A DNA stretch of 64,000 nt, from the NCBI GenBank assembly GCA_006226305.1, contig SBHG01000147.1, positions 775 to 64,774 of the forward strand. Direction: 5' to 3'. The stretch comes from Alphaproteobacteria bacterium. GTDB lineage: Bacteria > Pseudomonadota > Alphaproteobacteria > M2410. Position numbers and translations under genes: made by a program. This document shows positions 58,985 through 64,000 of the stretch, piece by piece; the stretch's first letter is position 1; each line of letters opens with the position of its first letter. Below the pieces are notes generated by a model, which did no database searches, was not told the DNA's origin, and was given only the letters and a program-made list of their open reading frames with translations.

Positions 58985-59491
58985 TCAGTCCGGCTTGGGA
59001 TTGGTATTGCCGGTATCCAGAACGAACTTCCAGACCCCTGCGGCGTCCTTCTTCCAGACCGTCGTATATTTGCCGTGTTCCTCGATTGGATTGTCATCGG
59101 CATCTTTGCCCTTAAAGACATACCGCCCCCAGGTGACGCCAAGATCCATGGAGGCGCTCATATAGGCGTTCTCCGGGGCCCAGATCACCGTCCAATCCCC
59201 CGGACCCCCCAAAGCCGCGGTAATGCTTTCCCGTCCAACAACAGGCTGGCTGCCATCAGGTAAATAAACCGCATCCTCCATTGCATATTCCCCGAAAGCC
59301 GGTCCAAAACCAATATCCTGCGCGCGGTCGCTAAAAGCCGAATCAACCGCCATGAGTGCCACGCGCGCCTCTTCCTGAGCAAATATACCCGCCACGAGAG
59401 AGGCCTGATCGGGCATTTCCTCCGCCTTTACCACCCCGGCAAAAGCCGTCAAACCAGCGCCGAACACCAATAGGGATAACTTCTTCATCAT
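58985..59491 (-). CDS. secreted NTF2/SnoaL-like (DUF4440-like) protein
   Basis: MMKKLSLLVFGAGLTAFAGVVKA is a signal peptide. The end, ...GKYTTVWKKDAAGVWKFVLDTGN, is typical of the NTF2-like fold. The track ORF's 129-aa N-terminal extension is antisense to the next gene. Confidence 0.5.
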   Translation of the reverse strand: MMKKLSLLVFGAGLTAFAGVVKAEEMPDQASLVAGIFAQEEARVALMAVDSAFSDRAQDIGFGPAFGEYAMEDAVYLPDGSQPVVGRESITAALGGPGDWTVIWAPENAYMSASMDLGVTWGRYVFKGKDADDNPIEEHGKYTTVWKKDAAGVWKFVLDTGNTNPKPD

Positions 59492-59513
59492 TTGCAGGGC
59501 CCGCCTTGAACGA

Positions 59514-59531
59514 TTGAGAGATTCATGACAT
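59514..59531 (-). promoter_or_regulatory. Pho-box-like direct repeat upstream of orfA-pit
   Basis: The minus strand reads A-TGTCAT-GAAT-CTCTCAA. Compared with CTGTCAT-N4-CTGTCAT, I count 11 of 14 positions matching. It lies 52-69 nt upstream of the ATG at 59583. Confidence 0.3.
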
Positions 59532-59582
59532 TTAAGGGCATCAAAGCCCTCCAATTGGACATAAGAACCCCGGAGCCCTTTC

Positions 59583-60263
59583 ATGGCAACAAAAAGTACC
59601 ATTTCAGGATTGTTTGGTCGCTCGCCTATTCGGCCCCTCCAACAGCATATGGCCATTGTGACGGAAGCCGCCAAACAGGTCGTCGACCTCTTTGAGGCCC
59701 TATGTGCCAGCCAGTGGAAAGAAGCCGACACCATCGTCGACAAAATTTCCTCCCTTGAGTCCGAGGCCGACGAGGTAAAGAACGAGTTACGCGCGCATCT
59801 GCCCAAAAGCCTTTTCATGCCTATGGATCGCCGCGATATTCTCGAAATCCTGGATTTGCAGGACAACATCGCCGACATCGCTCAATCCATCGGCGGCATC
59901 ACGCGCGAGCGGCGCATGGAAGTACCCCCGAGCCTGGCCAAGCCTTTGATGACCCTTATCCGTCGCTGCGTCGACGCTTGTAAGCACTGCGACAAGACGA
60001 TCAACGAATTGGACGAGCTGCTCGCAACGGGTTTTCGCGGCCGTGAGTCCGACATGGTTCACACCATGGTGGAAGAACTCAACAAGATTGAATCAGACAC
60101 TGACCTGATGGGAACAGATCTGGCCCGCAGCCTCTTTGCGATAGAGGACGAACTCAGCCCGGTTTCAGTAATGCTGTGGTATCAACTCATCCAAATGATC
60201 GGCGGCCTTGCCGACAACGCCGAACGGGTCGGCAATCGCCTCAGATTGTTAACAGCCCGATAG
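59583..60263 (+). CDS. DUF47/TIGR00153 PhoU-like protein (OrfA of the orfA-pit operon)
   Basis: GLFGRSPIRPLQQHM....E.......L........W.......I..LE.EAD..K..L...L....F.P.DR.D.L. Confidence 0.85.
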   Translation: MATKSTISGLFGRSPIRPLQQHMAIVTEAAKQVVDLFEALCASQWKEADTIVDKISSLESEADEVKNELRAHLPKSLFMPMDRRDILEILDLQDNIADIAQSIGGITRERRMEVPPSLAKPLMTLIRRCVDACKHCDKTINELDELLATGFRGRESDMVHTMVEELNKIESDTDLMGTDLARSLFAIEDELSPVSVMLWYQLIQMIGGLADNAERVGNRLRLLTAR

Positions 60264-60323: not shown

Positions 60324-61589
60324 ATGGATATTATTGCTCAATACGGCACCGTTTTTATCATTCTTGCTCTGATTTTCGGACTTTATATGACGTGGGGGAT
60401 CGGCGCCAACGACGTGGCCAATGCCATGGGAACCTCCGTTGGTTCTGGCGCCATCACCATTACGACCGCGATTTTTATCGCCGCTATCTTCGAGTTCGCG
60501 GGGGCAGCGCTGGCCGGTGGCAATGTGACCTCGACGATCCGAAAAGGGATCATTGATCCGGCCCCGATCATAAACAACCCGGAAATACTGGTCTTTGGCA
60601 TGTTGGCCGCGCTTCTGTCGGCCGCCATATGGCTCATGCTCGCTTCCAACCGGGGCTGGCCGGTTTCAACGACGCATTCGATCGTGGGCGCGATTGTCGG
60701 CTTTGCCCTTGCAGGTATCGGAACAGAAGCGGTTCAGTGGGACAAGATCAGCCAGATCGTCGCGAGCTGGGTTCTTTCACCCGTTCTTGGTGGCACGATC
60801 TCTTTTCTTTTGATGATGAGCGTGCGGCAACTCATCCTAAACACGGACAACCCGTTTGAAAACGCCAAGCGCTGGGGCCCTGTCTATCTTTTCTTCGTCG
60901 GGTTTATTATAGCGCTCGTCACCCTGTTTAAGGGATTGAAGCACCTCAATATCCATCTGACGGTGCCACAAAGCTTCTTCTCAGCGGCGGCGGTGGGCCT
61001 CCTGGTCGCATTCCTGGGATGGCTCATTCTGCGCCGCGTCACCATCGACCGTGACGCCGACCGCGAATTCCACTTCGCCAGTGTCGAGCGCATCTTCGGG
61101 CCAATGATGATTTTCACCGCCTGCTCCATGGCCTTTGCCCATGGCTCTAACGATGTAGCCAATGGTGTCGGCCCAATTGCGGCGGTCTACGGGATTGTTT
61201 CCTCAGGCGGCGAGGTGATGCAAAAATCTCAGCTGCCCATCTGGATCCTGATCCTGGGTGGCGGCGGTATTGTCCTTGGCCTGGCAACCTATGGCTACAA
61301 GGTAATGCGCACCATTGGCACCAAGATCACCGAGCTCACACCATCACGCGGCTTCTGTGCCGAACTGGCCGCCGCTTCGGTGGTTGTGCTGGCCTCTCGT
61401 ACGGGAATGCCGGTTTCGACAACGCACATCGCCGTGGGCGCGGTCGTTGGCGTCGGCTTTGCAAGGGGCATTGGCGCTCTCGATCTGCGCGTCATCATGG
61501 GCATCATTATGTCCTGGGTGATCACCCTTCCCGTAGCGGGCATTCTCTCCGCCCTGCTGTTCTTTATGCTGAAAGGGATCTTCGGCTAA
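60324..61589 (+). CDS. pit: inorganic phosphate transporter, PiT family
   Basis: GANDVANAMGTSVGSGA...PVSTTHSIVGAIVG...GSNDVANGVGP...PVSTTHIAVGAVVG. Confidence 0.93.
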   Translation: MDIIAQYGTVFIILALIFGLYMTWGIGANDVANAMGTSVGSGAITITTAIFIAAIFEFAGAALAGGNVTSTIRKGIIDPAPIINNPEILVFGMLAALLSAAIWLMLASNRGWPVSTTHSIVGAIVGFALAGIGTEAVQWDKISQIVASWVLSPVLGGTISFLLMMSVRQLILNTDNPFENAKRWGPVYLFFVGFIIALVTLFKGLKHLNIHLTVPQSFFSAAAVGLLVAFLGWLILRRVTIDRDADREFHFASVERIFGPMMIFTACSMAFAHGSNDVANGVGPIAAVYGIVSSGGEVMQKSQLPIWILILGGGGIVLGLATYGYKVMRTIGTKITELTPSRGFCAELAAASVVVLASRTGMPVSTTHIAVGAVVGVGFARGIGALDLRVIMGIIMSWVITLPVAGILSALLFFMLKGIFG

Positions 61590-63667
61590 AACGAGGACCT
61601 TTCCTCTTTCTCCTCAGAGTGCGCTTCCAGGTCACACAATGGCTCGGCATGATAATCCATGGCGACCATACGACCATTGATCCGCACCACGACCCCCATG
61701 AGGTCCTTTCTGGCGCTATAGACAATGAAATGGCGACGAATATTACCCGGCGCCACCCAATAGGCCTCGTCAGGGCTTTGCGGATTGTGCCCCACAATGA
61801 GAGGCGTATCGGAGGCGACCAGCAGGCTTTTTCGAAAACGTCGCACATTTGAGCGGGTGTATCCCGTCGGATGTCGAGGCGACCGCAGCCGGTTCCAGGT
61901 CAGCTCATTCACAAGCCCGGGATATTTCTTGACGTTGACGAGCGTTGCCGTATCCACCTGACTACGGGTCGGGCCCGCGTGCGAAGCAACATAGTCATCG
62001 GTCCGGGCAACGAGAGGCAATCTTTCAAAAAACCGCAAGATCGTCTCAGCATAGGCCTCGCCGCGCTCTTCGTTCAGCCACCTTCGAAACAACAACCCCT
62101 GCGGGACGCCTCCTTTTGACATGGCCGCGTCAAAACTTTCGTGATTGCCGCGAAGCATAAAGACGCTTTCGGGAAACCGAACTTTAAGCCTGAAGATTAG
62201 ATCCAGCATGACGCCAGAACTCACCATATCGTCCAGACCGTCTTCCCCCTCCGGGTGAACCACATCACCCAGCAAAAGAAGCAACGCTTTGCCGTGGGCA
62301 AGGTCGCGCAGGAAATTGTTCTCGCAAAGAATTTTGACCAGATTATCGATCTCGCCGTGAAGATCTCCGACAACAATCGGGTTCGGACCCTTTGGCAGTT
62401 CCAGCATTCCCCCTGGTTGACCTTCGTCGTCCAGAGGGCGAAACTTCTCATCCCGAAACAACAGAGTGGCCTGCCGCGCCAGGTCCAGAGCTTCGCTGGC
62501 CTCCAGCAACCCAAAAGGCCCTCCAAATATCTCCCGCAAAGCTCTTAAATTTTCAAACCGCAAATCATCCAGGCTCATATGTTCTTCCAGGCGCGCGACC
62601 TGTATGAGCGAACGGGTGCCGCGTGAGGAGATCACCAGCGTACCTCGATTGTTAAGCAATTGTACGGCATGCGGCGGAAAATCGGGCCGCAGGTTGAACA
62701 GCTTGGTCGTATTCTTATCGTGTCGACCAAAGTCCATTTCTTTGTTCATCTTAATCCGCAGCCGACCGAAAATGCCCCGTTTCATGGCCTGCGGATCAAG
62801 AATGAACCAATCGCGCGGATAGTCCTCACGCGCCTCGCCAATCGGGTGATCCGGCACCACCCAAAACTCATCATCATCAATGCGTATGCGAGCACCCTTG
62901 CCGCTATAGGGCACGCGCACCTTGCGATCCAGGATCTCAAAATGATCCCTCAGCCGCTGCGGGCCAACAAAACCCTTAACACCAAGCTGATGCATCAGAC
63001 GGGGCAACCCGCGGCTCGGCGTTGCTATTCGTTCAACGAGTGAAGGCGCTCCCGGAAGCAACTCCTCAACAGGCGGCGCGTCAAAGCCGTTCCGGTAATA
63101 AATCAGCAGTCCATTCGTTTGCAGATAATGACCGACGGCCAGATAGATTTCGTTCTGTTTTTGGACGATTTCCGGGGTCAGAAAAAGGTCAGCCGGATAA
63201 AGACCACTTTTGGCCCGCTCCTCCCGCCAAACGAAGGCCTTATCCGCGTCCGGCACCACAAACTCAAAAACGAACTTCCGGCGCCAATTCGTGATTGCAA
63301 AATCTCCAGCCTGTGGAGGGACCTGAATGCGATCAAAATCGATCTCAAGTGTGTCCCAATTGGCCAGCCACTCCTTGTCAAAGACCGTCAGCGCCTCTTT
63401 CACACCCTTATAAGGAACCCCCAGATGCACCTCGCGCGGCCGCAACGACAGGTCCCGCGACTGCCACCAATTGTTGCGCGACAGATCAAGATACCCCTCC
63501 AGAGGCCACCCTCGCAGACGCCGGACGATCGTCGATTTGCCTGACCCCGGCGGGCCCGTAATGATGAACTGGCGGAAGCGAAACCCGGAAGGAAACAAAC
63601 TTCCCCGGATATTCTGCGAATCTTCGATCTCCGCAAAAACTTCAGGAATGGAACCTTGGATTGTCAA
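61586..63667 (-). CDS. 693-aa multidomain protein: N-terminal P-loop NTPase (kinase-like), central FHA-like segment, C-terminal PPP-type metallophosphatase
   Basis: Walker A GPPGSGKST at aa 38-46. Metallophosphatase motifs occur in order: GDLHG (434-438), GDVVHPEG (467-474), RGNHE (506-510), SHAG (562-565), VGHN (625-628). aa 255-360 contain FGRHDKN...PPHAVQL...SSRGTRSLIQV. Confidence 0.75.
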   Translation of the reverse strand: MTIQGSIPEVFAEIEDSQNIRGSLFPSGFRFRQFIITGPPGSGKSTIVRRLRGWPLEGYLDLSRNNWWQSRDLSLRPREVHLGVPYKGVKEALTVFDKEWLANWDTLEIDFDRIQVPPQAGDFAITNWRRKFVFEFVVPDADKAFVWREERAKSGLYPADLFLTPEIVQKQNEIYLAVGHYLQTNGLLIYYRNGFDAPPVEELLPGAPSLVERIATPSRGLPRLMHQLGVKGFVGPQRLRDHFEILDRKVRVPYSGKGARIRIDDDEFWVVPDHPIGEAREDYPRDWFILDPQAMKRGIFGRLRIKMNKEMDFGRHDKNTTKLFNLRPDFPPHAVQLLNNRGTLVISSRGTRSLIQVARLEEHMSLDDLRFENLRALREIFGGPFGLLEASEALDLARQATLLFRDEKFRPLDDEGQPGGMLELPKGPNPIVVGDLHGEIDNLVKILCENNFLRDLAHGKALLLLLGDVVHPEGEDGLDDMVSSGVMLDLIFRLKVRFPESVFMLRGNHESFDAAMSKGGVPQGLLFRRWLNEERGEAYAETILRFFERLPLVARTDDYVASHAGPTRSQVDTATLVNVKKYPGLVNELTWNRLRSPRHPTGYTRSNVRRFRKSLLVASDTPLIVGHNPQSPDEAYWVAPGNIRRHFIVYSARKDLMGVVVRINGRMVAMDYHAEPLCDLEAHSEEKEERSSF

Positions 63668-63932: not shown

Positions 63933-64000
63933 GGAGAGGTGGCCGAGTGGTCGAAGGCGCTCCCCTGCTAAGGGAGTAGGCGAGGAATCGTCTCGAGGGT
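63933..64000 (+). tRNA. tRNA-Ser (anticodon GCU), 3' end cut by the window end
   Basis: GGAGAGG-TG-GCC-GAGTGGTCGAA-GGC-G-CTCCC-CTGCTAA-GGGAG, then a long variable arm TAGGCGAGGAATCGTCTC and the start of the T arm GAGGGT. Confidence 0.88.

Follow-up and report, generated by a model that had tools for sequence, protein, structure and literature searches.

A P-loop, FHA-like and PPP phosphatase protein family linked to the phosphate transport genes pitR and pit

Pit transporters are usually regarded as simple carriers, and little is known about their regulation. A precedent for the system described here, in concept only, comes from HPr kinase/phosphorylase (HPrK/P) and the PPDK regulatory protein; both are P-loop protein Ser/Thr kinases that use, and are responsive to, inorganic phosphate (Pi). 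PhoU works with Pst, and the PhoU_div protein PitR has only recently been demonstrated to be a transporter-specific accessory regulator in Staphylococcus aureus, where it acts only with its cognate PitA and controls the Pho two-component system; no kinase or phosphatase partner is mentioned in that study (PMC13170248). Here we analyze a stretch of 64,000 nucleotides (the window) from contig SBHG01000147.1 of an Alphaproteobacteria bacterium, in which a 693-amino-acid (aa) protein combining a P-loop module, an FHA-like module and a PPP-family phosphatase domain is encoded beside pitR and pit. As with PhoU and PitR, the genes of this module accompany a specific phosphate transporter, and the module would be an accessory regulator of that transporter. 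It differs from them in having no sequence or fold relationship to either, in forming an extra layer alongside PitR, and in being enzymatic by prediction (P-loop plus phosphatase), whereas PhoU and PitR are helical-bundle adaptors. Because the module is almost always found beside Pit and PitR, it probably helps to control phosphate transport. We consider its functional linkage to Pit very probable. The more specific proposal, that it is a dedicated accessory of the low-affinity phosphate unit formed by PitR and Pit (a PHO4 protein) and acts through a phospho-switch, we place at a probability of roughly 0.45.

The linkage rests on a family that is much larger than a first inspection of the window had implied. 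An exhaustive phmmer search retrieved 967 representative clusters of relatives, and a scan of one genome per GTDB species found relatives encoded in at least 518 species genomes. A word-indexed search returned about 90 full-length homologues at 33-41% identity and one at 90%, and none of these has a name that goes further than "metallophosphoesterase". The carriers include Desulfobulbales (Desulfocapsa, Desulfofustis, Desulforhopalus, Desulfoprunum and the cable bacteria, Candidatus Electrothrix), sulfur-oxidizing Gammaproteobacteria (Candidatus Thiodiazotropha, Sedimenticola, Lamellibrachia endosymbionts and Granulosicoccaceae) and Alphaproteobacteria (Rhodospirillales, Kiloniellales, Hyphomicrobiales and Kordiimonas aquimaris). 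Using the window Pit and PitR as tblastn probes against the 80 best-scoring genome loci, we observed pit and/or pitR immediately adjacent to the target gene in 73 of them, which corresponds to 73 of 78 informative loci when two loci with less than 350 bp of flanking sequence are set aside. An earlier, sequence-only reading of the window had called the gene an orphan that stands alone; neither description survives these counts. Three gene orders occur. In 52 loci, mostly from Desulfobulbales, the target is followed by pitR and pit on the same strand, with a gap of 43-480 bp to the nearest of the two. In 15 gammaproteobacterial loci, pitR and pit precede the target (or the P-loop gene and then the FHA-PPP gene), again on one strand and with gaps of 40-446 bp. 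In six alphaproteobacterial loci, the target converges with pitR-pit as it does in the window, at a distance of 30-97 bp. Since the linkage outlasts three rearrangements across two phyla (three bacterial classes), it argues for functional coupling and not for inherited synteny.

The conserved neighborhood also bears on the proposal that the protein is a self-contained writer-reader-eraser switch without a dedicated partner, or a phage-defense or stress module. Such a reading would fit the union of three modules in one chain and the lack of a curated family, but the family is widespread, the pit/pitR context supplies a partner, a PADLOC scan for defense systems gave no match, and the window has a uniform, host-like G+C content (0.53-0.59, in line with the first impression of it) with no mobile-element context seen around the gene. 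We regard this explanation as very improbable. From the earlier suggestion of a phospho-signaling switch, the signaling role is retained as our leading reading, whereas the notion that it is self-contained is not, given that the module is tied to pitR-pit in three classes and three gene orders.

Other phosphate genes recur around the module. Neighborhoods include Na/Pi cotransporters (11 of the 80 loci), polyphosphate kinase 2 (PPK2), a PstS-like gene, phosphate porin O/P and Usp. PPK2 genes lie within a few kb of the module in L087 (9860-11443), L007, L057 and L073, which hints at a connection to polyphosphate metabolism. Pit or Na/Pi-transporter loci also harbor the P-loop module by itself, whether plain or fused to GAF or DnaJ. 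In Magnetococcus sp. PR-3, the gene for a P-loop+GAF protein (P0091, L086:6001-7287) has a Na/Pi cotransporter gene on one side and pitR-pit on the other, and no FHA-PPP gene lies near it, which suggests that the P-loop module is the core Pit-linked element. C-terminal GAF fusions of the P-loop module were also seen in P0228 and P0211. The gene for a DnaJ+P-loop paralogue (P0184, L088:7001-7966) comes directly after that of an NptA-PhoU Na/Pi cotransporter, and a pit-pit-Ploop-FHA-PPP operon is present at the same locus. The N-terminal J-domain of this paralogue (DnaJ, E ~1e-18) is shared by P0188 and P0203 and may imply a link to Hsp70. A 249-aa stand-alone P-loop homologue (P0183, L089:7001-7750) has no phosphate transporter adjacent to it. 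PAS-GGDEF-EAL and hybrid histidine-kinase genes surround it, which suggests that members of the wider P-loop family may act in other signaling contexts.

The relatives retrieved by the exhaustive search fall into three architectures: the full form of ~690 aa, a form of ~480 aa corresponding to residues ~245-680, and the P-loop module alone at ~200-320 aa. The 693-aa protein is the single-chain version of a widespread two-gene module that consists of a ~200-aa P-loop gene and a ~480-aa FHA-PPP gene, a relationship of the Rosetta-stone type. Among 84 loci, 66 carry the fused form and 18 the split form, the latter in all 15 gammaproteobacterial loci and in three (L006, L007 and L045) of the nine genome loci from Alphaproteobacteria. 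In these 18 loci the split point falls exactly at the position of the disordered linker of the window protein, and a stop codon is followed by an ATG within 0-5 codons (24 codons in L073). As read from these junctions, a single-codon change would suffice to interconvert split and fused forms. In three further loci that were retrieved independently (L087, L085 and L088), a detached P-loop open reading frame (ORF) lies directly beside the FHA-PPP gene at a pit locus, and its product is 44-45% identical to the window N-terminal (N) module (E 3e-57 to 5e-66). Each of the 18 split loci (L006, L007, L021, L022, L030, L032, L035, L043, L045, L048, L049, L053, L057, L061, L062, L067, L073 and L075) has its P-loop ORF in frame with the FHA-PPP ORF, with a single stop between them or, in L073, two stops 18 nt apart. 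This pattern plausibly reflects shared ancestry and a ranking bias of tblastn; no shared frame is found in L087, L088 and L085, which were reached by other routes. Programmed readthrough or selenocysteine insertion at these stops was considered and rejected, because the stops are a mixture of TAA, TAG and TGA with an ATG close behind, and the pairs look like ordinary, translationally coupled genes.

We modeled the full window protein with AlphaFold2 (AF2) from 39 sequences and obtained three folded parts and one disordered linker. Table 1 lists their coordinates with the predicted local distance difference test (pLDDT) and predicted template modeling (pTM) scores. Metallophos (aa 431-641, above the gathering score) is the sole Pfam family recognized in the protein, NCBIfam offers no family for it, and no curated family in either collection spans its full length. 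The first description of the protein as a fusion of P-loop, FHA-like and PPP phosphatase modules that matches no described family is borne out by the Pfam, profile, AF2 and Foldseek evidence. We found no literature description of the P-loop and FHA-PPP module or of its association with pit, and the four-part association of P-loop, FHA-PPP, PitR and Pit appears to be undescribed, though each of the domain types is known.

Table 1 Features of the 693-aa ORF and the adjacent phosphate transport genes in the window
Feature	Position (nt)	Strand	Evidence
Fused P-loop / FHA-like / PPP phosphatase ORF, complete, 693 aa, TTG start	61586..63667	-	sequence; AF2 mean pLDDT 87.5, pTM 0.68
N-terminal P-loop module, aa 1-216	63020..63667	-	alignments; dedicated AF2 model, pLDDT 91.9, pTM 0.89
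Walker A GPPGSGKST, aa 38-46	63530..63556	-	sequence
Disordered inter-module linker, aa 217-235	62963..63019	-	pLDDT <50; matches stop/start junction of two-gene forms
Beta-rich middle module, aa 236-362; core ~285-360 assigned as divergent FHA	62582..62962	-	Pfam matches of homologues; profile versus PDB; residue census
Two lead-in helices and PPP-family binuclear metallophosphatase domain, aa 363-682	61622..62581	-	Pfam Metallophos E 5.5e-12; PDB sequence matches; Foldseek
pit, PHO4-family inorganic phosphate transporter, convergent with the 693-aa ORF	60324..61589	+	Pfam PHO4 E 3.1e-123
pitR / orfA, PhoU_div (DUF47) Pit accessory regulator, directly upstream of pit	59583..60263	+	Pfam PhoU_div E 2.3e-54

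The confidently folded part of the P-loop module covers aa 7-216 in a dedicated AF2 model. Its Walker A motif, recognized from the start, is well kept: G38, P39, P40, G41, G43 and K44 are at least 90% conserved in family alignment A1 and invariant in alignment A4. Beyond this motif, the family alignments show D61, R76-P77-R78, H81, R113, F134/F136, R148, R151, Q171 and R192 to be invariant. No Pfam family covers the module; AAA, ABC and kinase matches are sub-threshold and confined to the Walker A stretch, including the best AAA_33 match among 39 fused members (2e-4). Foldseek returned nothing significant (best E 0.012 in PDB and 0.0036 in BFVD, template modeling (TM) score at most 0.42), and the weak neighbors it listed are almost exclusively P-loop kinases, namely adenylate, thymidylate, shikimate, pantothenate and deoxynucleoside kinases, PPK2, zeta toxin and polynucleotide kinases, the T4 type included. 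With P-loop kinases the module thus shares the Walker A motif and the kinase class of its weak structural neighbors. It also has an invariant Asp after strand 2 and an invariant RxxR on the helix after the FEF strand, and by analogy D61 and R148xxR151 could represent the catalytic Asp and the lid arginines of these enzymes. It differs from them in the lack of a significant match (E >=0.004) or of a Pfam or NCBIfam model, and in having the unique invariant motifs WW, RPREVHLGxP and FEF together with an N-terminal three-stranded beta element. Judged from the models, it is a well-folded, putative nucleotide-binding module of a previously undescribed family. The sequence-only reading had called it kinase-like; its weak neighbors agree with this label, which, with nothing significant among them, would denote a resemblance of fold class only.

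Two more specific relationships of the P-loop module were tried and rejected. The resemblance to HPr kinase-type P-loops that had been suspected from the sequence found no support, as there was no Hpr_kinase Pfam match at E up to 10 in the window protein and no match in the 39 fused members, the PDB profile search or the top 50 Foldseek results; the module therefore differs from HPrK/P in Pfam, sequence and fold comparisons alike. A relationship to ABC ATPases was dismissed because the PDB profile and Pfam ABC_tran matches span only Walker A and the following "G.WP" turn, the signature motif is absent, and Foldseek returned no ABC proteins. A profile of the N module reaches at least 1081 proteins, most of which are 200-220 aa long and have no Pfam domain. 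Three stand-alone members of ~200 aa (P0307, P0330 and P0352) are named "serine/threonine protein phosphatase" in NCBI yet have no phosphatase domain, and this wrong name was probably transferred from fused relatives.

These results leave room for an explanation in which the P-loop module has no catalytic role but binds ATP, ADP, Pi or polyphosphate as a switch that allosterically controls FHA-PPP or PitR/Pit, with unrelated Hanks-type kinases writing any phospho-sites. The lack of a significant kinase match fits this idea, as do seven invariant basic residues (K44, R76, R78, R113, R148, R151 and R192) that suit an anionic ligand, and the GAF or J-domain fusions in other lineages, which are typical of regulatory modules. 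PhoU-type regulators, moreover, classically partner a P-loop ATPase, PstB. However, the weak structural neighbors are almost all phosphotransferases and not GTPase or ABC switches, and the tight pairing with a phosphatase suggests an opposing enzymatic activity. We consider a non-catalytic switch unlikely.

For the middle module, an FHA-like pattern can be read directly in the window sequence (G314-R315, H333 and SSRGT at 347-351), as had been pointed out before. The window copy gives no match to Pfam FHA (PF00498), and the assignment comes through transitive homology: the Pfam family matches three of 39 fused relatives (best E 0.0027) and six of 45 short forms (best E 6.7e-06), relatives show an IGR...(S/A)xRH...DLxSxxGT signature, the short forms in its classical SxRH version, and a PDB search with the family profile has FHA domains in each of its top 10 places (best E 0.0013), among them FhaA, ArnA, 3gqs, 1uht, APLF and CEP170. 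Because relatives match Pfam FHA and the top PDB profile matches are solely FHA domains, we accept the module as a probable divergent FHA domain. In the AF2 model, nine strands at aa 250-359 with pLDDT mostly above 85 compare with the eleven-stranded beta-sandwich of a canonical FHA domain. Apart from lacking its own Pfam match, the window module departs from FHA domains in three extra N-terminal strands (aa 250-272) and in its phosphopeptide-contacting positions, where the Ser is mostly Ala in the family (Pro here) and the Arg is found in ~60-70% of members. In the window copy R315 is kept and the SxxH motif is degenerate, with P331 at the Ser, A334 in the His column and H333 displaced by one, and there is no NG. 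The phosphothreonine contacts are thus poorly kept in the family and degenerate in the window copy: the FHA-like part of the first description stands, and the "reader" role attached to it is weak. Retention of these residues was also compared between split and fused forms, since better retention in the former could have marked the P-loop protein as the FHA ligand; the difference was only modest, and this idea was dropped.

The C-terminal domain carries the complete ordered set of metallophosphoesterase motifs reported earlier (GDLHG 434-438, GDVVHPEG 467-474, RGNHE 506-510, SHAG 562-565 and VGHN 625-628). Foldseek against PDB aligned it with PPZ1, PP5, PP2A, calcineurin and PP1 over ~335 columns at E 8e-14 to 5e-12 and TM scores on the target of 0.6-0.73, and PDB sequence matches were to BSU1, PPZ1, PP1 and PP2A. 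Fused and short relatives alike keep D435, H437, D468, N508, H509, H563 and H627 with no or almost no exceptions; D435 is never replaced in 39 fused members or 46 short forms, and H437 is invariant in the former and reaches at least 90% conservation in the latter. Since these metal ligands are kept, the binuclear PPP active site is predicted to be intact. With the PPP Ser/Thr phosphatases (PP1, PP2A, PP5, calcineurin and PPZ1; bacterial PrpA/B, lambda phosphatase and ApaH) the family shares the fold (E ~1e-13, TM ~0.7), the GDxHG and GNHE motifs and both downstream His ligands, and by our own reading HAGP and TWNR occupy the positions of HGG and LLWSDP in PP1. The difference lies in motif II, which is GDxxH(S/P)E in place of GDxVDRG: the GD with the bridging D468 is kept and the phosphate-binding Arg is missing, as had been noted for the window copy and now proves to be family-wide, with an invariant H471. 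The family also differs in having the FHA domain in front, in fused forms the P-loop module as well, and in its dedication to the pit context. The same PPP-clade domain occurs in one to five copies in very large proteins, P0156 (7186 aa), P0222 (4344 aa), P0218 (2009 aa), P0219 (1397 aa) and P0236 (980 aa); in P0219 and P0236 a canonical FHA domain (E 2e-13 and 4e-08) lies C-terminal to the phosphatase.

The unusual motif II and the kinase-like neighbors of the N module can also be read as a metabolite pair, in which the P-loop module would be a small-molecule, nucleotide or polyphosphate kinase and the PPP domain a phosphoesterase for substrates such as polyphosphate or Ap4A-type dinucleotides (compare ApaH and yeast Ppn2), so that together they make or use the Pi moved by Pit. 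The weak fold neighbors of the N module are indeed small-molecule or nucleotide kinases and include PPK2, some neighborhoods hold PPK2 and Na/Pi transporters, motif II lacks the DRG of protein phosphatases, and the carrier lineages are polyphosphate accumulators. On the other hand, the best matches of the C-terminal domain, N-terminal lead-in helices included, are the protein phosphatases PP1, PP2A, PP5 and calcineurin, a metabolic enzyme would not be expected to carry an FHA domain, which mediates protein interactions, and the GAF and J-domain fusions point to signaling. We find the metabolite pair improbable.

The sequence-only reading had offered nucleic-acid end-healing as a further alternative; an enzyme of the Pnkp/PNKP type would unite a 5'-kinase and a 2',3'/3'-phosphatase and would use the FHA domain for recruitment. 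Bacterial Pnkp likewise joins a P-loop kinase-like module and a calcineurin-type phosphoesterase in one chain, and mammalian PNKP has an FHA domain beside its phosphatase and kinase domains; the weak fold matches of the N module include Pnkp1 (4xrp) and phage polynucleotide kinases, and the FHA domain of APLF is among the profile matches of the middle module. The Pnkp fold matches rank low, however (E ~0.1, TM ~0.3), and the phosphatase resembles PP1/PP2A and is not of the lambda or HAD type. In contrast to the Pnkp-Hen1 system, there is no ligase domain, as the protein ends with the PPP domain at ~aa 682, no Hen1 neighbor is present in the window, and no hen1/methyltransferase, ligase or other repair gene adjoins the module in nine contexts with called genes. 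At 73 of the 78 informative loci, the module has pit/pitR as neighbors. Genomic context, the missing partners and the phosphatase fold thus all speak against end-healing, which we judge to be extremely improbable.

We return to the phospho-switch on PitR-Pit, for which the following steps can be proposed. The P-loop module would bind ATP (or another phospho-donor) and phosphorylate Ser/Thr on PitR, Pit or itself, or alternatively would change its conformation in response to nucleotide or Pi load. The FHA-like domain could tether the PPP domain to its PitR, Pit or P-loop partner, and the PPP domain would remove the phospho-mark. The whole module may in this way adjust Pit transport and/or the signals that PitR passes to the Pho system to the energy or phosphate status of the cell. 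Several observations weigh against this proposal. No kinase matches the P-loop module significantly (best E 0.004-0.012, TM at most 0.42), and Walker A is all that scores in sequence searches with it. The residue census counted R/K at the position of the GR Arg in 26 of 38 fused forms and in 26 of 45 short ones, and the Ser of SxxH is mostly Ala across the family and replaced in the P331...A334 stretch of the window copy. Motif II is devoid of the substrate-phosphate Arg of GDxVDRG, and the substrate class of the PPP domain is therefore uncertain. As for the context, five loci with adequate flank have no pit (L005, L018, L076, L080 and L082), the distant P-loop homologue in L089 is not pit-linked, and adjacency indicates functional coupling but not its direction or chemistry. 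A still broader claim, that the ~200-aa N module represents a family of P-loop protein kinases or of Pi/ATP-sensing switches that is new, and that it gates Pit or PitR signaling post-translationally together with FHA-PPP, we hold to be rather doubtful.

In the window itself, the 693-aa ORF is present as first described and is 100% identical to TNE37260.1, a GenBank entry from a metagenome-assembled genome named "hypothetical protein [Alphaproteobacteria bacterium]". We infer that the pit and pitR genes of the window are its functional partners. The stop codons of the ORF and of the convergent pit, now identified as a PHO4 gene, overlap by 4 nt (61586-61589), and the tRNA-Ser on its other side was also correctly placed: it starts at 63933, 265 bp from the start codon of the ORF (Rfam E 0.0022), with a GCT (Ser) anticodon read by eye. 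The window end cuts this tRNA, and ARAGORN misses it because it is incomplete. A Pho box search upstream of pitR and the 693-aa ORF gave three sites with three mismatches in the window against 3.9 expected from shuffles. One of these weak sites (59514-59531, minus strand, three mismatches to CTGTCAT-N4-CTGTCAT) lies 52-69 bp upstream of pitR, at a frequency no higher than in shuffles. Scans of the window for sigma-70 promoters and terminators gave no signal above shuffled background. A mechanical ORF of 297 aa (58985-59878, minus strand) overlaps the start of pitR by ~300 nt. Its DUF4440 match is confined to the C-terminal part (aa 190-284), and an internal Met is followed by a signal-peptide-like stretch (MKKLSLLVFGAG...), which together suggest that the true gene would be much shorter and would not overlap pitR.

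A conserved module beside pitR-pit, with relatives in so many species, suggests an unrecognized post-translational control of phosphate uptake or efflux. The association gives more than 1000 "hypothetical" P-loop proteins a context, flags the misannotation of some as "serine/threonine protein phosphatase", and makes the question of Pit regulation directly testable. If the proposed mechanism is true, the N module would join HPrK/P and the PPDK regulatory protein as another case, and the system would form a layer of phosphate-flux control in polyphosphate-storing bacteria of the sulfur cycle, such as cable bacteria and chemosynthetic symbionts. It may thereby bear on polyphosphate cycling in sediments and on phosphorus removal from wastewater.

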